A stretch of 27,831 nucleotides of DNA from Deinococcales bacterium (GCA_043778225.1 JAYWGM010000040.1:1-27831), one strand, 5' to 3'. Numbered from the stretch's first letter, positions 69-27,344 are shown. Made by a program: numbers and translations. The notes: generated by a model from the letters alone, not told the origin.

Positions 69-323
69 TTAGGCTTCGACCCGTCTTTTGGTGGGGGCAT
101 TGGTCTGCTGCATCTGCGAAGCCGCTTGTCCGACTTGTACGCCAAACATCCACGCCAAACGGTGCATAAACGAAACGGTTTCGTAGTCGCCAGCCAGCAC
201 TCGGTCGCGCATATAGGCATCGACACCAACAGGAAACTGTACACCTTTGATCTCTTCGCCATTGTGCTGTTTCATGCGTTCGATAAATGCCCGAACTTCG
301 ACTAAACCCTCGGCTTCTTTCAT
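69..323 (-). CDS. ddrH: DdrH-like small protein (Deinococcus DNA-damage-response protein H family), 84 aa
   Basis: C-terminal FMHRLAWMFGVQVGQAAS...RRVEA resembles the DdrH pattern as I recall it (FMxxLAWQFGAQVGYAAG...RVQA). Start moved to ATG 323 because TACACT (336-331) lies 7 nt upstream. Confidence 0.55.
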   Translation of the reverse strand: MKEAEGLVEVRAFIERMKQHNGEEIKGVQFPVGVDAYMRDRVLAGDYETVSFMHRLAWMFGVQVGQAASQMQQTNAPTKRRVEA

Positions 324-373
324 GGTCTTTAGTGTAATACTTTTACGGTAACTGTGCGTAGCCCCGAACACGA

Positions 374-5531: not shown

Positions 5532-5541
5532 AAGGTCAAAG

Positions 5542-5592
5542 GGTTAAAAGGGAAAAAGGTTAGGTCTTTACTTTTTCCCTTTTAACCTTTTT
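5542..5592. terminator. Bidirectional terminator-like hairpin built from octamer repeats
   Basis: Perfect 17-bp inverted repeat GGTTAAAAGGGAAAAAG (5542-5558) / CTTTTTCCCTTTTAACC (5571-5587) followed by a T run, between convergent ubiD and truA. Confidence 0.75.
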
Positions 5593-6539: not shown

Positions 6540-7667
6540 ATGTGGTTTAAGGTTCTGGTTTTAACGGGTTTATTACTCTTTTCTGTGGGAGCGGCACAAC
6601 CGCGCAACGCTGGCGTTTTACTGATTCGGGTTTTACTGAGTCAACAAAGTAAAGTCTCGCTTTTGATGCCCGCCAACCACAGTGCTTTATTTACCGACGG
6701 CACAACCATCTCGAGCAGCGATACCGCCCTCGAGTGGCGTATTTCTGTGACCAAAGGCAACATCGGTATTGAAACCGCCACAGGAATTTTTGATGCTGGC
6801 AAAGACCGCTTGATTCTGCAAAGCAACACCAGTTATTTTCAATTCGATGGCAAACTCTATCGTGGCGCAGCCATGCTGCTGGCTCGAGGCGGACAAGTGA
6901 TGCTGGTTAATGCCGTGGATGTCGAAGAATACGTGCGCGGTGTGATTCCACTCGAGATGCCAACCCACTGGCAAGAAGAAGCCCTAAAAGCCCAAGCCGT
7001 GATTGCCCGAACCTATGCGATTGCCAACCTCAATTCAAAAGCCGATTACGACCTCTGTGCCACCGAACGCTGCCAAGTCTACGGCGGAGCAACTGCCGAG
7101 ACCCCACGCGGCGACGCGGCGGCTGCCAGCACCCGTGGTTTGGTGCTGAGTTATGGCAACCGCCCAGCCCGCACGTATTTTCATGCCGAAAGTGGTGGCT
7201 TTACTGCCTCGAGCCGCGAAATTTGGGGTGGCGAATTGCCGTATTTAACCGCCCGACCAGACCCCGGCGGAGTCTCGAGTCCAAGCGCATGGCGCATCAA
7301 TGTCATCAGCAGCACCGCCCAAAGCGTGATTAGCCGTTTTGCCAGCGTTGGGCAATTTCGCAGTATGCGGGTGGTAGACCGCACCGAATCGAACCGCCCA
7401 AGCATGATTGAAATTGTTGGCAGCGCGGGTACAGCCAAAATTATTGGCACAAACATTTATGCCTTGGCTCGAGCTTTGGGCGCAAAAAGCAGCATGATTG
7501 ATGTGGTCTCGAGCAACCCACTGATTATTGAAGGCTACGGCAACGGGCATGGGGTCGGTTTATCGCAGTATGGCGCACGGTATTTTGCGGCACAAGGGTA
7601 TGGTTACACCCAAATTTTGGGGTATTACTATCCGGGTGTGGGGATTGGGGCTTACGCGGTGCAGTAG
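6540..7667 (+). CDS. SpoIID/LytB-domain secreted lytic-transglycosylase-like protein
   Basis: Signal peptide from ATG 6540; VEEYVRGVIPLEMP, EALKAQAVIARTYA, CATERCQVYGG, GHGVGLSQYGA, ILGYYYPG. Confidence 0.9.
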   Translation: MWFKVLVLTGLLLFSVGAAQPRNAGVLLIRVLLSQQSKVSLLMPANHSALFTDGTTISSSDTALEWRISVTKGNIGIETATGIFDAGKDRLILQSNTSYFQFDGKLYRGAAMLLARGGQVMLVNAVDVEEYVRGVIPLEMPTHWQEEALKAQAVIARTYAIANLNSKADYDLCATERCQVYGGATAETPRGDAAAASTRGLVLSYGNRPARTYFHAESGGFTASSREIWGGELPYLTARPDPGGVSSPSAWRINVISSTAQSVISRFASVGQFRSMRVVDRTESNRPSMIEIVGSAGTAKIIGTNIYALARALGAKSSMIDVVSSNPLIIEGYGNGHGVGLSQYGARYFAAQGYGYTQILGYYYPGVGIGAYAVQ

Positions 7668-7699
7668 ACCTCGAGCAGTAGGATTAGGCGGTACTCGAG

Positions 7700-7889
7700 A
7701 AATTTTTTGTGAGCCTTGCCCCAGCCAATGCGACAAGGTTTTGGTGGCATGAGGGTCTATTTCTGCAAGTGCCAATGGCGAGAAGCCAGCTTGGAAGACA
7801 CCGCTATCCAAGCCGCCACAACCACTGAAAAGAGAAAGAGATTTAAGGATAGAATGTACTACTAAATTATCTGTAGAAAATCGCTGTAT
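7700..7889 (-). pseudogene. N-terminal stub of a C5-cytosine DNA methyltransferase
   Basis: KSLSLFSGCGGLDSGVFQAGFSPLALAEIDPHATKTL matches motifs I-II; no ATG after the upstream stop (ATA at 7889); no catalytic PC motif; frame runs antisense into the SpoIID gene. Confidence 0.75.
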
Positions 7890-7893
7890 GTCT

Positions 7894-8577
7894 TTATCTA
7901 GTATATTTCTTATCAATAATAGCTTTCGACAAATATAAAACAATTGAATTTATTATCTGGAAAATTTCATCTTCTAATTCTTGATAGGTTTCTTTTTTAA
8001 TTCCATCCTTCATACTTCCATGAGCAATATTATTCCGATAGCGTAGTAGTTTATTAATTTTTCCAGACCATTTATCGACTTCTGAATGTTCTATGCCTAG
8101 TAAAAATAAAACTTTTTTAATCACAATTGGTTTTATATTCGACTCTAAATCAATAATTTCATCTTCATTAAGAAGTACCTTTTGCTCCATAAGGGATGAA
8201 AATTCTTCGACAAATCTTTTTCTACGTGAAAATTGGTGTAGTTCACTATCATCAGGTCTACCTTTATTAAATATGCTTTCTTTATCTGTAGAGTTTAATT
8301 CTTTAAATACTTTATTAAACGAACTTGCTAGAATAGACCATGATACTTCATGATTTTCCATAGCTAATTTATTGATGTTTCTAACGTAAGCCGTAAAAGA
8401 AAACTTGCAGATACCTTCAAAATAAGCGTAAAGCATAACAATCAAAGTTTTTCTTAAAATATTTTGCTTGTCAAGATTTTCAACTTCTTGTACTTTATTT
8501 TTTAGAAGTCTCAATTCATCTTCCCGCCATAATCTTTCGTGTTCTATTTCTTCTCGAAAACCCTGCAAATCAATCAT
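7894..8577 (-). CDS. HEPN-like nuclease, MAE_28990/MAE_18760 family
   Basis: IVMLYAYFEG N-terminal motif, ESNI segment, and HEPN Rx4H motif RNNIAHG; directly downstream of DUF262. Confidence 0.8.
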   Translation of the reverse strand: MIDLQGFREEIEHERLWREDELRLLKNKVQEVENLDKQNILRKTLIVMLYAYFEGICKFSFTAYVRNINKLAMENHEVSWSILASSFNKVFKELNSTDKESIFNKGRPDDSELHQFSRRKRFVEEFSSLMEQKVLLNEDEIIDLESNIKPIVIKKVLFLLGIEHSEVDKWSGKINKLLRYRNNIAHGSMKDGIKKETYQELEDEIFQIINSIVLYLSKAIIDKKYTR

Positions 8578-9719
8578 AAATTATTCGATAACCATGTATC
8601 AACATACGAAATTCTGTTGTTAAGTGCTGCTAGATAGTTTTTCCCACCCCCTTTTGTGAGTTTTTGAAACTGCTCATCCTTTTTTAAATCTATCAGACGA
8701 GTAACCAATTTCTTCAATTTAGAACCTGTTAAATCCTGTAGTTCTAACAAATGATTTTGAATACCTAAAGTGATAGCTTCAAAAATAAGAATTGAAAAAT
8801 TCCCTTGTGAGTTTCCCTTCTCGTTAAAACTTGAGAAGGGAAACTCATCTAAAATTTGTCCTAATACTCCAAATGTTGAAATGAAATTGCTCTTTTCGAG
8901 TTCGTAGTTAAAAATTTCATATTCTTCTGCGTCTTTATCAGATACAACTTCCATATATTTAGTCAGAAAGTCACCAATGTTTTTTGAGTATTTTTGACGA
9001 TAGTTTTTGAACGCAAAAAATCTTAAAGCACACTCTTCCAAATACATTTGTTGTTGCTTTTCTTCAGTTAATCCCTTCATACAGTTTTTATAACTATTTT
9101 CTTTAACTATTGCCTTTAAAAAGTTAATAAATGTACTATCCAATAGTCTGATTGTGCAGTTTCTTAGTTCTTGTTCACTTAAAAGCTCACCTCCAGTATT
9201 GAGTCTTTTGAAAATATGATACTTTAACTTATTATTACTTTCTTGACGTAAAACTTCCATTCGTATGAAATGCCGTTTTAGTTTAATCCGTATTGCATTC
9301 GGTAAATTATCATGTGTTAGACCGTTTAAGTTATTTAAAATATCGCAACCTGTAAGTGTAAGTTGCTTTTCTTCATAATTTAAGAAATCACCTGTATTTT
9401 CATCTAATTTAGATTTAGTACCCCTAAAATGAAAATAAGAAGATATTCTTTGAAGACCATCAATCAGCTCATATATACCTTCTTCTTTTTCAATAACATA
9501 AATCGGTGGTATTGGTAGTTCCAATATCAACGATTCAATAAATTGTGATTGTTTTATCTCATCCCATCTAAAAAGCCTTTGAAAATCAGGTGATATTATT
9601 AGTTCTTTTGATTTAAACATATCAAAAAGCTCATTAAATGAAATATCAACATTTTTTGGTCTTGCATTTTTAGTTGTTGAATCTATCTGTTCAATTAATT
9701 TTATTGGGTCATACGTCAT
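8574..9719 (-). CDS. DUF262 (ParB/Srx-fold, GmrS-like) protein
   Basis: PDFQRLFRW, FIESLILELPIPPIY, IDGLQR, IFKRLNTGGELLSEQELRN. ATG 9719 overlaps the methylase stop (ATGA) and has SD GAGAGG. Confidence 0.9.
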   Translation of the reverse strand: MTYDPIKLIEQIDSTTKNARPKNVDISFNELFDMFKSKELIISPDFQRLFRWDEIKQSQFIESLILELPIPPIYVIEKEEGIYELIDGLQRISSYFHFRGTKSKLDENTGDFLNYEEKQLTLTGCDILNNLNGLTHDNLPNAIRIKLKRHFIRMEVLRQESNNKLKYHIFKRLNTGGELLSEQELRNCTIRLLDSTFINFLKAIVKENSYKNCMKGLTEEKQQQMYLEECALRFFAFKNYRQKYSKNIGDFLTKYMEVVSDKDAEEYEIFNYELEKSNFISTFGVLGQILDEFPFSSFNEKGNSQGNFSILIFEAITLGIQNHLLELQDLTGSKLKKLVTRLIDLKKDEQFQKLTKGGGKNYLAALNNRISYVDTWLSNNL

Positions 9720-11011
9720 AATTTCCTCTCTATACAAAGAATAGATTCTTTTTGCATTTCATTTAGCTGCCTATACTGAGAAGAGTTAATATTTATTTGA
9801 GAAAGTGAACGGGACAAAACATTTTCAGAAAATATATTTGCATTAAATCCTAAACTTTTAAACATTTCTTGATACAAAAAAGGTAAATCTACATAAATTT
9901 CCTTATAAAATGAACCTTGAATAACTAAGTATGCCTTTCCATTTACTTTAAGTACCCTTGCAATTTCAATTATTGATTTTTCAAGATCATCAAAGTAGTC
10001 CCAATATGTCTTATAATAATATGAATTAGACGCTTTGCTAGGGTGTTTTTTTATTTTTTCCAGAACTTCTTTTATAGATTTTGACCAAGTTGCCTTAGGT
10101 TTTTTGACAATTTTATCCCTAACAAGAGGCGCACCCATTATCTTTTTTCTAAATTCCTTAAAACTTTCATGACTTATATCAAAGGAAAGAGCGCAAAGTT
10201 CAAAAGACGTACTGATAGCATAATCAATTCTTGTACAATAAGGTGGTGATGTTAAAATAAAATCAATAGAATTGTCTTTTACTGGTAAATTTTTTGAGTT
10301 ACCAATTTGAATTTGAGAATCAAAAAGCCTTCCATTTGTTGATTTCGGTATATCTTCTACCATAGACTGTATAAAAGAGAGCCACATTTTTGGAAAGTCA
10401 TGTGTGCATGAATCTTGTATTTCATCATTTCTAATCCAAGTTGGATTAGAACTTGGTTTTATCGAAGCATATGTTTTTGCTGCTCTAATCAGGGCATAAA
10501 TTAAAAAATAAGCAATACATGAGATTTTTCCCGATTGGGGAGTTAGTGTAATTTTTTCATGATTAGTTGCAACATTTTTAAGGATTTGCTGTTCAATAAA
10601 TCGGTACTGAAGCACTATTTTTCTTTCTAACCAAATATCTAAGGGGTCGGGTTGATTAGTTGCATTAAATGTCTTTTTTTTTATTTTTGAGCATATCTCA
10701 AATGCCAATCCTGACAACTGACTTGCATCGTCATACCTTATAAGTTTTGATTTGGCTATTAGAACGGCAACTGGGTTTATGTCTATACCTATTGACTGGA
10801 AGCCTAACTCTGTTGCTGCAAGAGTGGTAGTTCCACTTCCATTCCATGGGTCAAGAATAACAGAATCAGAAGAAAGGTTTGCAGAGTGAATAATGGATTT
10901 AGCAAACCTTGCGGAATAACCCGCATAGTAATCGCACCAAGATTCTATCTTTTCTTGTCCAAGTGAATTTCGTTTTGCATCAAAAACTTTTGTACTTATC
11001 ATATTGCCCAC
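9716..11011 (-). CDS. Amino-DNA methyltransferase, probably N4-cytosine, alpha motif order
   Basis: YYAGYS, N-terminal SAM motif ILDPWNGSGTT and GIDINP, C-terminal catalytic TSPPY; GTG start with TATAGT 7 nt upstream. Confidence 0.88.
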   Translation of the reverse strand: MGNMISTKVFDAKRNSLGQEKIESWCDYYAGYSARFAKSIIHSANLSSDSVILDPWNGSGTTTLAATELGFQSIGIDINPVAVLIAKSKLIRYDDASQLSGLAFEICSKIKKKTFNATNQPDPLDIWLERKIVLQYRFIEQQILKNVATNHEKITLTPQSGKISCIAYFLIYALIRAAKTYASIKPSSNPTWIRNDEIQDSCTHDFPKMWLSFIQSMVEDIPKSTNGRLFDSQIQIGNSKNLPVKDNSIDFILTSPPYCTRIDYAISTSFELCALSFDISHESFKEFRKKIMGAPLVRDKIVKKPKATWSKSIKEVLEKIKKHPSKASNSYYYKTYWDYFDDLEKSIIEIARVLKVNGKAYLVIQGSFYKEIYVDLPFLYQEMFKSLGFNANIFSENVLSRSLSQININSSQYRQLNEMQKESILCIERKL

Positions 11012-11073
11012 TTTATCTACTATAGTAAAATTTTAACCTGTTAGCAATCGCTCTTCGTTAAACTTGCAACCAT

Positions 11074-11131
11074 CTCGAGCATTGGCGTTTTGCTCAGGGC
11101 TGCACACAAAATTCTACCACGCTTTTGCTCA
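11074..11131 (+). repeat. Cassette-delimiting direct repeat R1
   Basis: CTCGAGCATTGGCGTTTTGCTCAGGGCTGCACACAAAATTCTACCACGCTTTTGCTCA. Confidence 0.9.
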
Positions 11132-11479
11132 CGCTGGGATTTCATCGCCCAAAGCAAAACCAGAAAACTGCCTCTGAAACGGCGCTTGAAAACCAAGCAC
11201 AATCCGATTCTCAGGTACTCCCTGCTCGAGTAACAAATCCACGATGTTGTACTCGGTGTTGTCCACTTGCACCCAAACAAAATCGTTTTTAATATCTATT
11301 TGAACCAAGGTGCTGTGCGTGAATCTCGAGTTTGCCCATCCAATGTTTTGCAGTTGGTAATGCCCGTTTTGGTCGTCCAGTAAGAATTGGCGTTCAATAC
11401 CTTTTGGTAACAGCACTTGCTTGGTTTGTAACTGATTAAAAATATGATGAACCGCTTTTTGTAATTTGTTCAATGCCAT
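11129..11479 (-). CDS. xisI: XisI-family protein
   Basis: DDQNGHYQLQNIGW, IDIKNDFVWVQVDNTEYNIVDLLLEQGVPENRIVLGFQAPFQR; overlaps the xisH stop. Confidence 0.9.
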   Translation of the reverse strand: MALNKLQKAVHHIFNQLQTKQVLLPKGIERQFLLDDQNGHYQLQNIGWANSRFTHSTLVQIDIKNDFVWVQVDNTEYNIVDLLLEQGVPENRIVLGFQAPFQRQFSGFALGDEIPA

Positions 11480-11880
11480 GCCTCTATCACCTCTTGTTCT
11501 GGATTGTAGACCACAAGTGCAATTTTGTGTAATGCAATCATTTCTGTGGCAAATCGGCTTTGAAAAAACCCGTGGTAGGCACTGCTGGGAATAGCAAGGA
11601 ATAACTGGCGGTCTGGGTCTATGTGTTGTAGGGCATGACGGTAACTGAGGTACTGTCCAAGTGAGGCGCTAAATTCATGAGATGCGGATTGGCGAATAAA
11701 GGTTTTAATCTCTATGGCAATCCGTTCGCCTGCCCGTTCAGCCCCGAGAATTCGTTCTGCTCCAAGGTCTATTTCAAAAGCCGCATCGCCGTACTCGAGC
11801 GAAAGTGGGTCGTTGGTGATTCGCCAACCATCTTTGCGAAGGGCGTTTTTTACTGCGTCACTAAAAAAGTCTTTTGCCAT
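11470..11880 (-). CDS. xisH: XisH-family PD-(D/E)XK-fold protein
   Basis: MAKDFFSDAVKNALRKDGWRITNDPL, IDLGAERILGAE, IAIEIKTF, LGQYLSYR, LFLAIP, YNPEQEVIEAW. Confidence 0.92.
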   Translation of the reverse strand: MAKDFFSDAVKNALRKDGWRITNDPLSLEYGDAAFEIDLGAERILGAERAGERIAIEIKTFIRQSASHEFSASLGQYLSYRHALQHIDPDRQLFLAIPSSAYHGFFQSRFATEMIALHKIALVVYNPEQEVIEAWH

Positions 11881-11913
11881 TTGAATACTTGTTTATTGTA
11901 CAGCAGTTATTGC

Positions 11914-11975
11914 TTCGAGCATTGGCGTTTAGCACGGGGCTACACACAAAACTCTACCACGGTTTACTCAAATAC
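11914..11975 (+). repeat. Cassette-delimiting direct repeat R2
   Basis: TTCGAGCATTGGCGTTTAGCACGGGGCTACACACAAAACTCTACCACGGTTTACTCAAATAC. Confidence 0.9.
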
Positions 11976-12299
11976 TTATCTTGCAAACTCGATTTTCTGC
12001 GTTTGGCTTGGCATCATGTACGCCAACACAATTTCATTTTCTGGAATCCCAAGGCGCATTAGTTCATTGACCACACCAATATCTGTTCCATCTTCTTGCA
12101 CCCAAATCAGGTTGTCTCGAATGTCCATCTGAGCCACAATGCCATGCACTCGCTTATGCTGTTGCCAACCACTGACCAAAAGTTGGTACTGATGCTTTTC
12201 TTTATCGGCAAGTAGCGAATACTCGAGTCTATTGCTGCTGCGTGGTGTGATGCTGTTCAGAACCTCGAGAATGGCTTGTTGAGCGTATTTTATGTCCAT
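11976..12299 (-). CDS. xisI: Second XisI-family protein (orphan)
   Basis: DKEKHQYQLLVSGW, MDIRDNLIWVQEDGTDIGVVNELMRLGIPENEIVLA; ATG 12299 preceded by GAGG. Confidence 0.88.
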   Translation of the reverse strand: MDIKYAQQAILEVLNSITPRSSNRLEYSLLADKEKHQYQLLVSGWQQHKRVHGIVAQMDIRDNLIWVQEDGTDIGVVNELMRLGIPENEIVLAYMMPSQTQKIEFAR

Positions 12300-12328
12300 G
12301 CCTCTGTCGCCTCTTGTGCTGCATTCTA
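12290..12328 (-). pseudogene. 3' remnant of a deleted xisH
   Basis: TAG AAT GCA GCA CAA GAG GCG ACA GAG GCA TGG ACA TAA aligns without gaps to the intact xisH end TAC AAT CCA GAA CAA GAG GTG ATA GAG GCA TGG CAT TGA. Confidence 0.65.
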
Positions 12329-12364
12329 CTTTTAAAACATTCAAAAATACAGTACACTACCATC

Positions 12365-12571
12365 ATGACCATGCAAATCACCCTCGAGAAGAACCTTGAA
12401 GCAGCCGTGCAAAAACTGGCTTTGCAACAAGGTCTAACTGCCGAAGAAGTGGTTCTCGAGGCGATTCGTAAAGAAATAATTCCAAAAGCATGGAGTTTTT
12501 ACGGCTCTGGCGACTCGAGCATAGACGATTTATCTTTGCGTGATGAAGAATTGCTGTTCAGTGAGGGCTGA
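12365..12571 (+). CDS. Putative VapB-type antitoxin (RHH/CopG-like), 68 aa
   Basis: Small acidic-tailed protein directly upstream of the PIN toxin; C-terminal GSGDSSIDDLSLRDEELL is typical of antitoxins; TACACT-N6-ATG start. Confidence 0.75.
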   Translation: MTMQITLEKNLEAAVQKLALQQGLTAEEVVLEAIRKEIIPKAWSFYGSGDSSIDDLSLRDEELLFSEG

Positions 12572-12973
12572 ATGTTTTTGCTGGACACCAATGCTGCTTT
12601 GGCTATTTTGAATCGTCGTGACCCAAATCATGAGGCGATGAAAGCATTTTTTGGACAACCCATTCTTGTGCCAACCACAATTCTTCCTGAAGTGGATTAC
12701 TTGGCAACCAAGTACATTGGTTCTCATGCAGCTCGAGCTTTTCTTGCAGGTTTGGTGGCTGGTGAAATGACGGTTCTTACATTTGAAGCCAGCGATTCTG
12801 AACGGTGTTTAGCGGTCATGAATCGTTATCCTGATGTACCGCTTGGTTTTGTGGATGCCAGTATCATTACCTTAGCCGAAAAGCATCGTATTCAAAAAAT
12901 CTTGACTTTTGACCGAAGGCACTTTTCGTTGGTCAGACCACTTGGTATGAGTCACTTTGATTTGTTGCCTTAA
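12572..12973 (+). CDS. vapC: PIN-domain VapC toxin
   Basis: LLDTNA, TILPEVDYL, LGFVDASIITLAE, ILTFDRRHF. Confidence 0.92.
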   Translation: MFLLDTNAALAILNRRDPNHEAMKAFFGQPILVPTTILPEVDYLATKYIGSHAARAFLAGLVAGEMTVLTFEASDSERCLAVMNRYPDVPLGFVDASIITLAEKHRIQKILTFDRRHFSLVRPLGMSHFDLLP

Positions 12974-12974
12974 T

Positions 12975-13037
12975 CTCGAGCATTGGCGTTTAGCATAGGG
13001 CTGCACACAAAATTCTACCATGCTTTGGCTCGAATAC
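12975..13037 (+). repeat. Cassette-delimiting direct repeat R3
   Basis: CTCGAGCATTGGCGTTTAGCATAGGGCTGCACACAAAATTCTACCATGCTTTGGCTCGAATAC, starting 1 nt after the vapC stop. Confidence 0.9.
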
Positions 13038-13079
13038 AGCATTTTAGCAAATCGTATCTTTTTTGGTACACTTGTTCTC

Positions 13080-13355
13080 ATGAAACACATTGGCAGTAAT
13101 TTCGATGATTTTCTACTCGAGGAAGGTATCCTCGCCGATGCCGAAGCACTAGCCATGAAACGAGTGATTGCTTATCAGCTTTTAGAAGCAATAGAAACCA
13201 AGAAAATCAGTAAAACCGAATTGGCTAAACGCATGAACACCAGCCGTGCAGCGCTTGACCGTTTGCTCGATCCGAACAATCAAAGTGCGACCCTACAAAC
13301 CCTCGAGCGAGCCGCGATTGCCCTTGGTAAACGCCTCGAGATTCGCTTGGTGTAA
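13080..13355 (+). CDS. XRE-family HTH antitoxin (orphan), 91 aa
   Basis: HIGSNFDDFLLEEG, KRVIAYQL, ISKTELAKRMNTSRAALDRLLDP, TLQTLERAAIALG; TACACT-N7-ATG start. Confidence 0.88.
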   Translation: MKHIGSNFDDFLLEEGILADAEALAMKRVIAYQLLEAIETKKISKTELAKRMNTSRAALDRLLDPNNQSATLQTLERAAIALGKRLEIRLV

Positions 13356-13358
13356 ATT

Positions 13359-13390
13359 CTCGAGCATTGGCGTTTAGTAGGATTCTCGAG
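13359..13390 (+). repeat. Truncated repeat R4
   Basis: CTCGAGCATTGGCGTTTAG (19 nt identical to R3), then TAGGATT and a second CTCGAG. Confidence 0.8.
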
Positions 13391-13398
13391 AAGTTTAC

Positions 13399-13743
13399 TT
13401 ACCAAAAGTAATGAACCAGATTTAACCATTCTTGGGGTTCTAAAGTCTCGAGCAACAAATGAATTTCTTCGATGCTTTGCAGTAACGCTTGGTCTTTTGG
13501 AATCATGATAATTCCAGCAAAGTTCTGACCTGCTTGTAGGCGTTCATATGCGTACTTTGGAATGGTTTTGTAATCGTGTGATAATAGAATTCGTTTTTCG
13601 GCTTCGCACCACTCGAGAACTGCTGGGTCTTCTAAGCCAAAAATTTCTGTGTCCTGAATGCGAATAATGTCTAAACTGGGAATAACCCGAAGTAAGCCTC
13701 GTAAAATTCGATTGTCAAAGTTTTCGTCAGCCGCGACTTTCAA
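13399..13743 (-). CDS. DUF5615-family PIN-like putative toxin
   Basis: ADENF, GLEDPAVLEW, RILLSHDYKT; TTG start overlaps the DUF433 stop. Confidence 0.88.
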   Translation of the reverse strand: MKVAADENFDNRILRGLLRVIPSLDIIRIQDTEIFGLEDPAVLEWCEAEKRILLSHDYKTIPKYAYERLQAGQNFAGIIMIPKDQALLQSIEEIHLLLETLEPQEWLNLVHYFW

Positions 13744-14084
13744 CCTAAACCCTTGGCTTTGGCTCGAGCTAAGACTTTTGAGCGCAAAGAAACTGATTCA
13801 GGAAACCATGTTTTGAGGTTCTCGAGGGCGGTTTTCTCGGCTTGCTTGGATTCTTCGAGGTATGCTTTGATTTGAACAGGGTGGCGCAGAACATAAGCAA
13901 TAACCGCGTAAACATCATCTAAGTGTAAGGCTGGGAATGCTTCAACAATTTCCTCTGGGCTAGAACCAGAATTCCAACTGTGCATCAGGGTTTCGAGTGG
14001 TACTCGAGTTTGCCCAATGCGGATGGTGTTGTCCGAATCGGTTCGCAAGGGTACTGCGGTGCTTGGCTCGAAGGTTAAAGTCAT
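13740..14084 (-). CDS. DUF433-domain putative antitoxin
   Basis: IRIGQTRVPLETL, GSSPEEIVEAFPALHLDDVYAVIAY; TACAAT-N6-ATG start at 14084. Confidence 0.9.
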   Translation of the reverse strand: MTLTFEPSTAVPLRTDSDNTIRIGQTRVPLETLMHSWNSGSSPEEIVEAFPALHLDDVYAVIAYVLRHPVQIKAYLEESKQAEKTALENLKTWFPESVSLRSKVLARAKAKGLG

Positions 14085-14120
14085 GGGCAGATTGTACAAT
14101 AGTTTGTTTGTGCGTGAGTT

Positions 14121-14161
14121 TTGGCGTTTAGCACAGGGCTGCACACGAACTTTCGCTCGAG
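14121..14161 (+). repeat. Partial repeat R5
   Basis: TTGGCGTTTAGCACAGGGCTGCACAC matches the R1-R3 core; followed by CTCGAG at 14156. Confidence 0.85.
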
Positions 14162-14167
14162 CGCATT

Positions 14168-14534
14168 TTACAATAAGGCTCGTATTCCCTACCCACCATG
14201 CTTTGGTCTTAGAACCAATTCAACTTCGTACTCGAGGGCTTCGGCTTGCTCGAGAATCGTTTTTATTTCTAGGTTAGCACTGGCTTGTTCGCGCTGATGC
14301 ACCCTGCCTTTGCTAATGCCAAGCTCCGAACCTAATTTACTCAGGCTTTTGCCTCGAGTTTCCCGTGCGTGGCGTAGTAAAATCCCTGCACTCCGAGCCA
14401 GTAATTCGCACTTGAAAGTACGCTCGAGTTCGGTTGGTGTGGTTGTTTCTACTGCTTTGCTGATTCTCGAGAATTCCAGTGCGGATTTCTTCGGGCGTGA
14501 ACGTCTCGAGCATGGCTTTGATTCGTGGGTTCAT
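14168..14534 (-). pseudogene. Frameshifted XRE-family HTH gene
   Basis: Strong SD AAGGAGG before ATG 14534 (MNPRIKAML...). After a shift near 14465 the other frame reads LLRHARETRGKSLSKLGSELGISKGRVHQREQASANLEIKTILEQAEALEYEVELVLRPKHGG*GIRALL*, with an internal TAG at 14189-14191. Confidence 0.75.
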
Positions 14535-14661
14535 ATTTTCCTCCTTGCGCGGTGCGCGACAAGAATTCCTAGCGCTTGTTAAAAAGTGTGAGGGGTTCAG
14601 TAAAAAGTTGTACTTTTTGTGAATATACGTCAAATTGGTCTTAAATTGGTAGACTCTACCT

Positions 14662-16278
14662 ATGCTGCCAGAAAAAAGACTTTCCATTTATGATTGCACC
14701 CTGCGCGACGGCACACAAGGCGAAGGCTTTAATTTGTCGCTCGAGGATAAACTCGAGATTGCCAAAGCCCTCGACCGTTTTGGCGTGCAGTACATCGAAG
14801 GCGGCTGGCCCGGTTCTAACCCCAAGGATGCGCGTTTTTTTGAAGCCATGAAAAGCGTGCCTCTACGCCATGCCAAACTGGCGGCTTTTAGTTTTACCCG
14901 CCAAAGCCATATCTTAAACTGCGAAGACGACCCCAATTTGCGCTCCTTAACCCAAGCCCAAACGCCAGTCATTACACTGGTTGCTAAAACATGGGATAAA
15001 CACGTCACCGATGCGCTTGGGATTAGTCTCGAGCAGAACTTAGCGATGATTAAAGACACCGTGCGCTACTATAAAAGTCTTGGGCGCGAAGTGGTTTTTG
15101 ATGCCGAACTTGCCTTTGCCGGTTTTCGCCACAATCCAGCTTATGCCCTCGAGGTTTTACGCACCGCCGCCGGCGAAGGCGCGGATTGCTTGTGCTTATG
15201 CGACACCCTAGGTGATGTCATGCCCGAAGAAGTGGCACGGTTTGTCACCCAGACGCTCGAGTTGGGTATCCCTGTGGGGATTCATACCCACAACGACCTC
15301 GAGATGGCGGTCGCAAATGCGTTGGTAGCAGTACGCCACGGGGCAAGCCAAGTCCAAGGCACAATCAACGGAGTCGGCGAACGGGTTGGCAATATGAACC
15401 TCATTACTTTTATTGGCTTGATGCAGGCTAAACTCGGGCTTGCCTGTGTTCCAGATTTAAGCAAACTGACCGAAATCAGCCGTTTTGTGGATGCTCGAGC
15501 CAATCGCACCCCGCACAATAATCAGGCTTTGGTTGGCTCGAGTGCCTTTGCTCATAAGGGTGGAATGCACGCTTCTGCGGTTGCCAAAGACCCAAGTTTA
15601 TACGAACACATCAACCCCGAAAGCCTTGGTAATCAGCGCCGCATTCTGATGTCGGATTTATCAGGACGCAGTAATTTGGTGGCTACCGCCAAGCAATACG
15701 GCATCGAACTGAGTGGCAAAGACCCAGCCGTGGCTCAAGCCGTGGTTAAACTCAAAGAACTCGAGGATGAAGGCTTTACCTTTGAAGGTGCGGATGCCAG
15801 TGTGCTGATGCTGCTGCGGCAAGCCCGTGGAGAGCCCGAATTTTTTCAGGTCAGTGTTTTCAGAGCGCAGATAGATTCTTTTGCCGATTTTGACACCGAA
15901 GCCGAAGCCAGCGTTCAGGTTTTTGTCGGGGCAACCAAAGAACACGCGGCAGCCCTTGGCGATGGTCCAGTCAATGCGCTCGATAAAGCCTTACGCGCCA
16001 CGCTCGAGCGCCATTATCCGAGCTTACGCCAAGTCGAACTGCTCGATTATAAAATTCGGGTTCTCGAGGGTTCACAAGGCACAGCCGCTCGAGTGCGGGT
16101 CTTGATTACTTTTGGCGATGGTAAAAGCCAATGGACAACGGTCGGTGCGGGGGTCAACAGCATCAAAGCCTCGTTTATTGCCTTGTGCGATGGTCTGAGC
16201 TTTAAGTTGGTGCAAGATGGAATTGCACCGCCTCGAGATGTCAAAAGCCTCGAGACCCCAGTGCCTGCAACTTTTTAA
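14662..16278 (+). CDS. cimA: Citramalate synthase (LeuA/CimA family)
   Basis: YDCTLRDGTQGEG, YIEGGWPGSNPKD, GIHTHND, AFAHKGGMH, YEHINPE, GDGPVNALDKALR, LLDYKIRVL. Confidence 0.92.
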   Translation: MLPEKRLSIYDCTLRDGTQGEGFNLSLEDKLEIAKALDRFGVQYIEGGWPGSNPKDARFFEAMKSVPLRHAKLAAFSFTRQSHILNCEDDPNLRSLTQAQTPVITLVAKTWDKHVTDALGISLEQNLAMIKDTVRYYKSLGREVVFDAELAFAGFRHNPAYALEVLRTAAGEGADCLCLCDTLGDVMPEEVARFVTQTLELGIPVGIHTHNDLEMAVANALVAVRHGASQVQGTINGVGERVGNMNLITFIGLMQAKLGLACVPDLSKLTEISRFVDARANRTPHNNQALVGSSAFAHKGGMHASAVAKDPSLYEHINPESLGNQRRILMSDLSGRSNLVATAKQYGIELSGKDPAVAQAVVKLKELEDEGFTFEGADASVLMLLRQARGEPEFFQVSVFRAQIDSFADFDTEAEASVQVFVGATKEHAAALGDGPVNALDKALRATLERHYPSLRQVELLDYKIRVLEGSQGTAARVRVLITFGDGKSQWTTVGAGVNSIKASFIALCDGLSFKLVQDGIAPPRDVKSLETPVPATF

Positions 16279-17072: not shown

Positions 17073-17089
17073 AGACCAGAGAGGTGTAT

Positions 17090-17581
17090 ATGACTTGGCA
17101 AGAAATTATCAATGAACCAAGCCTCGCCAATTTGCCTTACAAAATCGAAACCAACGAACGAGGGCAAGTGATTATGAGTCCGACTGTTTTCCTGCACGGT
17201 ATTTATCAAGCCCAACTTGCCGAATTATTGCGCCAGACTTTGGGCGGTTTCACCAGCCTCGAGACTGCGATTGATACCAGCAAAGGCACTAAAGTACCCG
17301 ATGTGACATGGTTTACCCAAGACTTTTTTGAGCTTCATCAAGATGCCACCGACTTGCCTGTTGCTCCACCAATTTGTGTTGAGGTGATTTCCAAAACCAA
17401 TACACTGCGCGAAATTAACAGTAAGCGCAAACTCTATTTTGAAACAGGGGCAGAGGAAGTCTGGACTTGCGATCTTAAAGGCACAATGCGCTTTTACAAT
17501 CCAAACCAAGAACTCGAGCAATCCAAGCTCGCTCCAGAATTTCCAAAAAAAATCGAATTGACCGCCAGCCGCAAACTATAA
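17090..17581 (+). CDS. Uma2 (DUF820) family endonuclease
   Basis: GQVIMSP, HGIYQ, KVPDV, PPICVEVIS, KRKLYFETGAEEVW; SD GAGAGG before ATG 17090. Confidence 0.9.
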   Translation: MTWQEIINEPSLANLPYKIETNERGQVIMSPTVFLHGIYQAQLAELLRQTLGGFTSLETAIDTSKGTKVPDVTWFTQDFFELHQDATDLPVAPPICVEVISKTNTLREINSKRKLYFETGAEEVWTCDLKGTMRFYNPNQELEQSKLAPEFPKKIELTASRKL

Positions 17582-25877: not shown

Positions 25878-25995
25878 TGGCGTATTCTAGCCTAAATAAA
25901 TAGTATCTTTTCTTACGATTTTCTGGTCGGATTGATACAGTCTTGACCTTATTAGTTTTGTATTCTGGTCTGAGAGCAATTTTTGGGGGGATTTG

Positions 25996-26712
25996 GTGGC
26001 GGTTTTTGGTAACTTGACAGAATTTCCTTTGCTTGAAGTCTTTGGGATGCTCGAGCGGCGTTGTGGTGTTTTGCGTTTTACCCGAGTTGGTCGTTTTGCG
26101 AACCTCGAGTTTCATTTGAATAATGCCCAATTACAGGGCTTGGTGGTGGATGGCAAAGTCATGCGTGATGGTTTGATGGCAAAAAATTTATTGGTCGAAA
26201 TTGCCAACATACGCGATGGGAAATTTGAATTTCAACGTGTTCCAGTTGGTTCAGATGTTCTCTTAAACGACCTTGCCATCAGCATCAACGAGGTTTTACT
26301 GCGACGCGCCACACTCGACGACGAATGGAATAATTACCGCGAAAACCTGCCAGATGGTGAAACGCGCTTTATGCTCTCGAGTCAAGAATTGGTCTGGTTG
26401 GATGGTGACTTGCAGTTTTTTTGGAATCAAGCTGAGCCGCTTTTGGAGTATGGTATCAGCGCCAAGGATTTGGCGGTTCGCCTTAGTCTCGAGGTCAAAA
26501 TGGTGCAAGTCAATCTGTACAAACTCCGTGTTTTGGGTGTGATTCGTCCAGCCAGACGAATGCAGGAAGTGTCAGACATTCGAGCCGGTAATTTCCCTGG
26601 TCGAGAAAGCCGTCCAGCCCCAGTGTATATCCCACCTGTTGCGCCACAAGCCAAGCCGACCTTGGTCTCGAGGTTACTTGGGGCGCTGCGTTTCTTTGGG
26701 AAGCCAGCATGA
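25996..26712 (+). CDS. DUF4388 (PatA-N-like) domain protein
   Basis: MAVFGNLTEFPLLEVFGML, GKFEF, EVLLRRATLDDEW and a C-terminal HTH-like segment; located before GTPase and Roadblock genes. Confidence 0.75.
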   Translation: MAVFGNLTEFPLLEVFGMLERRCGVLRFTRVGRFANLEFHLNNAQLQGLVVDGKVMRDGLMAKNLLVEIANIRDGKFEFQRVPVGSDVLLNDLAISINEVLLRRATLDDEWNNYRENLPDGETRFMLSSQELVWLDGDLQFFWNQAEPLLEYGISAKDLAVRLSLEVKMVQVNLYKLRVLGVIRPARRMQEVSDIRAGNFPGRESRPAPVYIPPVAPQAKPTLVSRLLGALRFFGKPA

Positions 26713-26798
26713 GTTCGCCCTGTGGGAAACCAGCATGATTTCGCTTTTGGAGAAGCCAGTATGAGTTCGCTTTTGGAGAAGCCAGTATGAATCCGCTT
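26700..26798 (+). repeat. 26-bp tandem repeat, about 3.8 copies, encoding three coupled 9-aa mini-ORFs
   Basis: GAAGCCAGCATGAGTTCGCCCTGTGG / GAAACCAGCATGATTTCGCTTTTGGA / GAAGCCAGTATGAGTTCGCTTTTGGA / GAAGCCAGTATGAATCCGCTT; ATGA at 26709, 26735, 26761 and 26787. Confidence 0.92.
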
Positions 26799-27344
26799 AA
26801 ATTGGTCATTTCTGGTCCGGTTGGGGCGGGTAAAACCACTTTTGTGCAGTCTTTGTCCGAAATTCCAGTGGTCAATACCGATGAAGCCGCCAGCGAAAAC
26901 ATTGGCAAAGCCACCACCACGGTTGCCTTGGATTTTGGGATGATGACGCTGGATGGTATCCCAATTCATTTATTTGGCACACCGGGACAAGACCGTTTTG
27001 ATTTTATGTGGGAGATTTTGTGCGAAGGCGCGCTGGGTTTACTGATTTTGGTCTCGGGCGATCGACCACAAGATTTTCCTCATGCACGGCGAATTCTCGA
27101 GTTTATCACCAGCCGAATTGCGGTGCCGTTTTTGGTCGGTGTGACCCGTCAGGATTTACCTCGAGTTTGGGAACCCGAGGATGTGGCAGAATACTTTGAT
27201 TTAGCCCCAGAATTTGTGATTGGCATCAATGCCACCAGTGCGACCTCGAGTTTATTGGCAACTGTGCGCTTACTCGAGTTAGTAGAAGCCTACGACCCGT
27301 ACTACGCCGAAAGCCTGCAAGGTAATTATATCTTTGGTCAGTAA
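26787..27344 (+). CDS. MglA/CvnD-like small GTPase
   Basis: G1 GPVGAGKTT, G2 TTTVALDFG, G3 GTPGQDRF, G4 variant TRQD. Confidence 0.9.
   Translation: MNPLKLVISGPVGAGKTTFVQSLSEIPVVNTDEAASENIGKATTTVALDFGMMTLDGIPIHLFGTPGQDRFDFMWEILCEGALGLLILVSGDRPQDFPHARRILEFITSRIAVPFLVGVTRQDLPRVWEPEDVAEYFDLAPEFVIGINATSATSSLLATVRLLELVEAYDPYYAESLQGNYIFGQ

Follow-up and report, generated by a model that had tools for sequence, protein, structure and literature searches.

The pdif sites of Acinetobacter are 28-bp XerC-6-XerD dyads that lie on plasmids in alternating orientation, and in the immigration control region of Escherichia coli and the minimal mobile elements of Neisseria, defence genes are swapped between conserved flanks by homologous recombination after DNA uptake. 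Here, we describe a 27,831-nt stretch of DNA from a Deinococcales bacterium (GCA_043778225.1, JAYWGM010000040.1:1-27831; hereafter the window), in which small gene cassettes are separated by copies of a ~55-nt direct repeat, designated R. This cassette array shares features with several described systems: (i) as in integron arrays and clusters of attC sites lacking integrases (CALINs) (Cury et al., bioRxiv 10.1101/030866; PMC3948777), the modules are compact, many of them are of the toxin–antitoxin (TA) type, each is followed by a lineage-specific repeat in one orientation, order and content vary between strains at the repeats, and, as in CALINs, no integrase lies nearby; (ii) as in the Acinetobacter pdif modules moved by XerC/XerD (PMC6449649, PMC13141974, PMC7399989), the modules are small, often TA, bounded by short sites, and without a recombinase of their own; and (iii) as in restriction–modification (R-M) units with long direct repeats (Furuta, Abe and Kobayashi 2010, PMC2853133), the units are selfish, the repeats exceed 30 bp, mobility genes are missing, and a C5-methylase/R-M unit stands at the array head. 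The array behaves like a sedentary integron/CALIN or a set of dif modules but fails the defining site features of both, and searches of open-access text gave no description of this repeat-bounded arrangement.

The source assembly of the window (G000; 4.03 Mb, 107 contigs, 89% complete) was searched as a whole with an nhmmer profile of the R copies, and 7 other genomes of the same genus (G001–G007) served for comparison. The G000-wide search returned only R1–R5 of the window (Table 1; E values from 1.8e-18 to 2.3e-4) besides one doubtful relic, and a regular expression for the 28-nt core, allowing up to 5 mismatches, matched 4 long copies only. The 5 same-orientation copies reported in a preliminary description of this DNA were therefore confirmed by both the repeat analysis and nhmmer, and R is locus-bound in G000, which answers the concern raised there that it might be a genome-wide repetitive extragenic palindrome (REP) or miniature inverted-repeat transposable element (MITE). 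The copies are 76–92% identical to each other, and their consensus is CTCGAGCCTTGGCGTTTAGCACAGGGCTGCACACAAAATTCTAnCACGCTTT, then (A)CTCGAG; in the relatives, R usually has CTCGAG at both ends, which extends the element to ~60–66 bp. The left end of R3 (12974–12993) is 100% identical to R4 (13358–13377). All 4 G000 copies that keep the left end have the variant CATTGG, and most other genomes have CCTTGG. The CTCGAG cap emphasized in the preliminary description is present but is weak evidence by itself, because CTCGAG is the commonest hexamer of G000 (24,877 copies versus 931 expected, ~1 per 160 bp; 158 in the window) and behaves there like a HIP1-type iterated palindrome. The doubtful relic is a CTCGAG-bounded 56-bp stretch at the start of another contig (G000:C32:297-352, E 0.029) and may be a decayed sixth copy; the same contig also has xisHI homologues and a phage-type integrase.

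Comparison with relatives shows that cassettes are lost, gained, re-ordered, and present at different loci, the breakpoints falling within R or on its border. BLASTN matches between the window and its relatives end at 11087, 11915, 11951, 12975, 13377, and 14121, all inside repeats. The HTH_3 cassette stands after R with 7 left neighbours (the XRE end, a 345-aa open reading frame (ORF), xisH, two kinds of AAA_15 module, Uma2, a 275-aa ORF, and DUF433), the end of the XRE gene stands before R with 4 different right neighbours, and Uma2 and xisI_b have 4 and 3 left neighbours across R, respectively. Logan contigs from 2 freshwater metagenome runs of different studies (X3 and X5) were aligned on the array. 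Contigs of both runs have a joint from 12973 to 13358, which skips the XRE cassette and has 20 letters common to both sides, and a contig of X5 joins R1 (to 11128) to xisI_b (from 11975), which skips 846 bases, that is to say, the XisHI cassette and one R. The xisHI cassette with one R is also missing in G003:C70 and G006:C66. These breaks are the outcome for which the preliminary description had proposed a strain comparison. Contigs of X3 and X5 also have an internal deletion in vapC, and an X5 backward alignment from 11960 to 11102, which has an unrelated left context in the assembled contigs, reads as another cassette order. The direction of a given cassette difference, gain or loss, is one that we infer.

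Only a single genus of uncultured freshwater Deinococcales carries R. A profile search of the fetched contigs (E ≤ 0.01) found 30 copies at 14 loci of 7 genomes, all of them intergenic, and all copies within a locus have one orientation. A sequence-only covariance model, which scored 150 candidates per genome and whose R counts are therefore lower bounds, found strong copies in 6/7 of the other same-genus genomes (at least 3–7 each) and weak partial matches in 3/11 genomes of other genera of the family (E values from 7e-4 to 4e-3). An exact 21-nt pattern searched over 185,579 species (one genome each) matched 5 contigs, all from Deinococcales/Deinococcota metagenome-assembled genomes of this genus set. 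A 2.7-kb contig from a metagenome collection (L029) also has a 21-nt match; it scores poorly as a complete R (E 0.0056), has no informative genes, and was set aside. Five loci of other genera with homologues of the cassettes (xisHI, xisI_b, vapBC, XRE, and DUF433/DUF5615; 67–83% identity) have no R at E ≤ 10. The cassettes thus exist without R in other genera, which indicates that R is an invention of this genus that has come to flank such modules.

R has no symmetry of the kinds on which the described sites depend. Six single-stranded DNA folds (3 copies, both strands) showed no hairpin, with z scores from −0.73 to +0.65 relative to shuffled sequences, and no dyad was found, the best 11-nt inverted arms (spacers of 4–9) matching at 7/11, a score equalled in 806/2000 shuffles. 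No Rfam family matched the array when the window was scanned at E ≤ 1. One GTTTAGC in the middle of R is one mismatch from the attC R' motif GTTRRRY and has no inverse partner in the consensus. On this basis, R is distinct from attC sites, dif/Xer-type cores, REP/MITE elements, and CRISPR repeats; the preliminary description had likewise set R apart from attC and CRISPR, and neither a hairpin nor an RYYYAAC/GTTRRRY pair was found. A reading of R as a coding remnant (two frames are open) was dropped, because the copies differ by 1-nt indels. Unlike pdif sites, R spans ~55 bp without a dyad, keeps a direct orientation throughout, and is located on the chromosome. Unlike a REP or MITE, R has 5 copies in one G000 array and at least 3–7 per related genome and shows no hairpin fold, and unlike CRISPR repeats, its copies stand at irregular, gene-filled spacings of 384–1061 bp (840, 1061, 384, and ~760 bp in the window). 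Compared with the E. coli and Neisseria frameworks, which consist of core genes at one locus, the array uses a portable 55-bp repeat and a 137-bp gene stub (described below) at several loci. Integrons differ in (i) their imperfect-palindrome hairpin, R''/R' pair, and IntI, none of which accompanies R; (ii) their cassettes, whereas the cassettes here carry their own promoters, face both ways, and form short arrays (1–5 cassettes) at many loci; and (iii) their fixed end, which is intI-attI there and a methylase stub here.

The preliminary description had tied the array to the SpoIID-cimA interval. This link does not hold across the genus, in which R arrays stand in at least 9 right-flank contexts (Table 1). 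The outer right edge of the arrays is of 3 kinds, namely, the HTH_3 gene without a repeat, a ragged R cut at ~45–50 (L016, L023, and L038), and a full R (L036 and L037). Five foreign arrays could each be matched to G000 by one flank only, and the G000 regions concerned have no R. These placements bear on a second suggestion of the preliminary description, that R is a long target duplication, in which each module would have inserted into a pre-existing R and copied the target, as for the R-M units. Under such a duplication, each empty site should have a single copy of its own, locus-specific target, whereas the same R stands at many unrelated loci and is missing from the matching G000 sites. 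PMC2853133 describes the repeat of R-M units as a local target copy, whereas R is one family shared by many modules and many loci. The criteria used there, namely, direct repeats >30 bp, no mobility genes in the cassettes, and selfish TA/R-M-like modules, do fit the array, and the CATTGG variant common to the 4 left-end-bearing G000 copies fits as well; yet the same R-flanked cassette in 5 genomes would need repeated identical insertions, and overall similarity is not higher among the copies of one genome (described below). We therefore consider target duplication improbable.

The region upstream of cimA (14580–14680; loci L002–L006) differs in every genome of the genus, and in G002 it joins a homologue of window 70–336, which marks the stretch left of cimA as a hotspot of rearrangement reaching beyond the array. 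Beside a solo R in another genome, a 129-bp stretch (L037:3603-3731, G005:C675) is 93% identical to G000:C67:19291-19419 against a background of ~80%, and may be another small mobile or repeated element.

The array belongs to a wider island, which begins with the 5' stub of a C5-methylase gene. The stub is 86–96% identical at 8 loci of 6 genomes, and the homology stops exactly at the methylase ATG, although the start codon itself is mutated in the window. Among the stub loci, only L013 has the full-length C5-methylase gene, and G000 has no intact close paralogue. Between the stub and the first R lies one variable slot, and this order was observed at all 7 loci where both the stub and R are visible, in different chromosomal places. 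In the window, the slot holds genes of defence type, for which PADLOC reported NsnA (9.5e-59) and MTase_II; the HEPN, GmrSD_N/NsnA-like, and N6/N4 methylase genes are likely a three-gene defence system, and G006:C66 has a 67%-identical version of them in the same slot. Elsewhere, the slot contains a 345-aa ORF (L013), an AAA_15 gene with a 178-aa ORF, NsnB-like (L014 and L019), an AAA_15 gene with a 147-aa ORF, PDC-M29-like (L017), or a 135-aa ORF (L021). The window slot is AT-rich (27–35% GC) and has no CTCGAG in 8001–11000, compared with ~3 per 500 bp elsewhere, which flags it as a recent import in G000. The stub is strongly kept although most loci have lost the rest of the methylase gene. 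In L013 (5125–7340, G003:C44), the intact C5 methylase is accompanied by the upstream 345-aa ORF, which has no Pfam or PADLOC match and is presumably the restriction enzyme partner of the methylase.

We tentatively favour, with a probability of about 0.4, homology-driven recombination at the conserved 32-nt left core of R. RecA-type crossovers would take place between R cores within an array, between arrays, or with DNA taken up from related strains, and R would serve as a portable homology linker, so that a dedicated recombinase would not be needed. The island is composed of the C5-methylase stub, the defence slot, and then XisHI, VapBC, HigBA-like, DUF433/DUF5615, and Uma2 cassettes, each followed by one R in the same orientation. 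The defence slot would be replaced allelically via flanking homology, with the stub on one side and the first R on the other; the slot is bounded by these 2 conserved pieces, which is the arrangement that allelic replacement would need. The left 32 nt of R (CTCGAG through GCTGCAC) have an identity of ~0.87 irrespective of the left or right neighbour, whereas the right 20 nt track the right-hand cassette (0.848 for the same neighbour versus 0.761, permutation p 0.012; 0.838 versus 0.759, p 0.04, with 2 same-locus rows left out). Together, the uniform left part and the tracking right part place the exchange in the core or at its edge. The joint that lacks the XRE cassette uses R4, a 20-nt stump without most of the core; 20 bp of identity therefore sufficed, which is predicted by homology-driven deletion and not by a complete recombinase site. 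Homology is the most economical account of the deletions, the re-orderings, and the slot replacement. The enzyme, the way in which R was first placed beside unrelated modules, and its route to further loci are matters that we infer.

Several observations weigh against this reading. The perfect tracts common to most R copies are ~20 bp by alignment and would be poor RecA substrates. The non-coding 32-nt core is ~87% kept, compared with 73–84% for coding flanks, which suggests that something recognises it. Homology alone cannot seed new loci or place R beside unrelated modules, and the 9 or more right-flank contexts, together with the R-less matching places in G000, make it insufficient for the spread of R. 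R copies of one genome resemble each other no more than they resemble those of other genomes (identity 0.869 versus 0.871, p 0.62), that is to say, there is no signature of gene conversion or concerted evolution. In addition, most of the junctions come from metagenome assemblies, which are prone to misjoin at repeats; several junctions recur in independent assemblies (L013/L018, L014/L019, and X3/X5).

The conserved core and the spread of R bring in a second explanation, in which a site-specific recombinase or nuclease encoded elsewhere in the genome would recognise R. As in an integron, it would release cassettes as circles that could insert again, either at R or at secondary sites, and the stub would be the fixed end of the platform. 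Sedentary integrons typically have homogeneous, lineage-specific sites, and the non-coding core of R is likewise conserved irrespective of its neighbours. The single R orientation per locus also speaks for an enzyme, as do the right part of R, which travels with the right cassette like the part beyond an attC crossover, and the many R-less loci that arrays have reached; the module beside the stub is the most variable and, in G000, the compositionally newest (AT-rich, no CTCGAG). By contrast, R has neither a hairpin nor dyad symmetry, and its truncated copies end in 3 ways: some keep only the left ~20–27 nt (R4; L020:4219-4239), some run from position 19 onward and stand behind one type of xisH, and some keep the left 45–50 nt. 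There is therefore no single crossover point, and a 20-nt stump supported a cassette-sized difference.

The search for an enzyme speaks against this second explanation as well. The 32 scanned ORFs of the window include no integrase or transposase, as the preliminary description had stated, and a scan of the longest non-overlapping ORFs (roughly ≥55 aa) at each of the 14 R-bearing loci gave no recombinase; the sole mobility gene at these loci is an insertion sequence (IS) transposase interrupting DUF5615 in L016. G000 (89% complete) has no serine recombinase and 3 tyrosine recombinases, all on other contigs. The co-distribution check covered its 2 phage-type integrases, a Xer-like gene being expected in all genomes. 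Neither follows the distribution of R, because no homologue was found at E ≤ 1e-10 in R-bearing G006 and many were found in R-less genera. The co-occurring recombinase sought by the preliminary description was thus not found, and of the integron-like capture hotspot that it had proposed, the cassette shuffling at R stands, and the integron-like part describes the behaviour of the array but not a demonstrated mechanism, with no recombinase tied to R and no symmetry in the site. We regard a trans-acting site-specific enzyme as doubtful. It is unlikely that the array represents an undescribed trans-acting system analogous to integrons, with a double-stranded asymmetric 32-nt site, a dead-methylase platform, and the newest acquisition beside that platform. 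The enzyme could be sought among the cassette nucleases, of which XisH/XisI are a speculative candidate: PMC4853749 (citing Hwang 2014) describes them as an endonuclease and a directionality factor for XisF, and in G000 they occur without any XisF-type serine recombinase found. Restriction and ligation at both CTCGAG ends was considered and dropped, because it predicts both orientations of R.

A further possibility is that each module needs R mainly as a regulatory or protein-binding element (an outward promoter, an operator, or an insulator), in which case shuffling would follow incidentally from R being all that the modules have in common. Many copies read TGnTAGAAT on the minus strand of their right part, and a similar TAGAAT or TAGACT precedes the start codons of a permease gene and cimA by a few bases. 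In Uma2 cassettes, only ~24 nt, including the ribosome-binding site, separate the start codon from R, so that a promoter inside R may be needed. A sigma-70 two-hexamer promoter scan and a terminator scan, however, found nothing inside any R copy, and conservation within R is lowest in the TAGAAT-like part, which R4 and R5 lack. The genes face R both ways, and R has no dyad of the kind usually bound by HTH antitoxins. We consider a mainly regulatory role very improbable and return to homology-driven recombination as the preferred reading.

The cassettes are predicted from sequence to be type II TA or small nuclease modules. Adjacent small genes form toxin and antitoxin pairs by Pfam (XisH with XisI, PIN with an upstream 68-aa ORF, DUF433 with DUF5615, and, in relatives, Gp49 with HTH), and the gene content that the preliminary description had assigned to the units was borne out by Pfam, except that the vapB ORF has no match. 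The HTH_3 gene has one frameshift, so its label as a pseudogene is correct; intact homologues are present in L017 and L023, and it is also the last gene of the arrays L013 and L018, beyond which no repeat follows. The XRE gene, an orphan in the window, is paired in G003 with a Gp49/HigB-like gene, and xisI_b, also an orphan here, has its own xisH in L015. A direct repeat (11449–11508 and 12269–12328) connects the xisHI region with the relic upstream of xisI_b. There is no R at the border between xisI_b and vapBC (~12325), and thus not every module border is an R. The DUF433-DUF5615 pair adjoins R in L016, L021, and L038, and Uma2 forms single-gene cassettes in arrays of G004, G005, G006, and G007. 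Genes face R in either orientation; stop codons at 11129, 11976, 12973, 13355, and 14168 abut the edges of R, as had been reported, and that at 13399 lies 21 nt away.

Table 1. Coordinates of the repeat copies, cassette genes, and flanking island in the window, and genes at the right flank of R arrays across the genus.
Feature	Position or locus	Strand	Basis or remark
R1	11072-11128	+	full copy; nhmmer E 1.3e-16
R2	11910-11971	+	full copy, left CTCGAG degraded to TTCGAG; nhmmer E 7.8e-16
R3	12970-13029	+	full copy; nhmmer E 1.8e-18
R4	13354-13378	+	left ~20 nt of R only; nhmmer E 2.3e-4
R5	14111-14154	+	partial: core kept, left CTCGAG degraded, right part diverged; E 5.9e-10
C5-methylase 5' stub, 137 bp (motif I region), left anchor	7716-7852	-	PF00145 on residues 34-72 of ORF 7560-7943
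Defence slot	7894-11011	-	HEPN (RiboL-PSP), GmrSD_N/NsnA-like, N6/N4 DNA methylase; Pfam
XisI	11129-11479	-	Pfam PF08869 3e-29
XisH	11470-11880	-	Pfam PF08814 2.1e-49
xisI_b (orphan xisI)	11976-12344	-	Pfam XisI; relic of xisH 3' end upstream
vapB, 68-aa ORF	12365-12571	+	position upstream of vapC; without Pfam match
vapC (PIN)	12572-12973	+	Pfam
Orphan XRE, HTH_37, antitoxin-like	13080-13355	+	Pfam
DUF5615 (PIN-like)	13399-13743	-	Pfam PF18480
DUF433	13740-14084	-	Pfam PF04255
HTH_3 (HigA-like) gene, terminal module at right edge of array	14168-14537	-	six-frame reading: one frameshift
Right flank, cimA	this window (G000)		
Right flank, BPD_transp_2 permease	G003:C44, G005:C678		
Right flank, DUF2200/OEP	G006		
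Right flank, DUF3809	G004:C106		
Right flank, glnA	G007		
Right flank, cytochrome c	G001:C490		
Right flank, BPD_transp_1 permease	G001:C274		
Right flank, BCS1-type ATPase	G003:C111, G005:C675		
Right flank, cupin gene	G004:C175		

Outside the array, the window has a Uma2-family endonuclease gene (17084–17581) and 4 to 5 tandem 26-bp units (26695–26798) near the border of the ORFs 25993–26712 and 26787–27344. The UbiD and pseudouridine synthase genes converge on an inverted repeat (5538–5591; 21 nt, 95% complementary, 12-nt loop) that probably acts as a terminator in both directions; a weak Rfam match to mir-335 at this place was rejected as spurious. ARAGORN detected neither tRNA nor tmRNA genes in the window.

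As integrons, pdif modules, and tRNA-anchored islets illustrate, bacteria bank small selfish or defence modules, which are shuffled at short sites. The array described here does the same with a site that shows none of the structural features typical of them and without an apparent recombinase. For this genus, the order of stub, slot, and R is a simple handle for locating the variable defence genes. If a dedicated enzyme exists, the array would represent a new gene-capture system; if the shuffling is purely homology-driven, it would be a natural example of a portable 55-bp linker and a pseudogene stub organising a bank of defence and TA modules.

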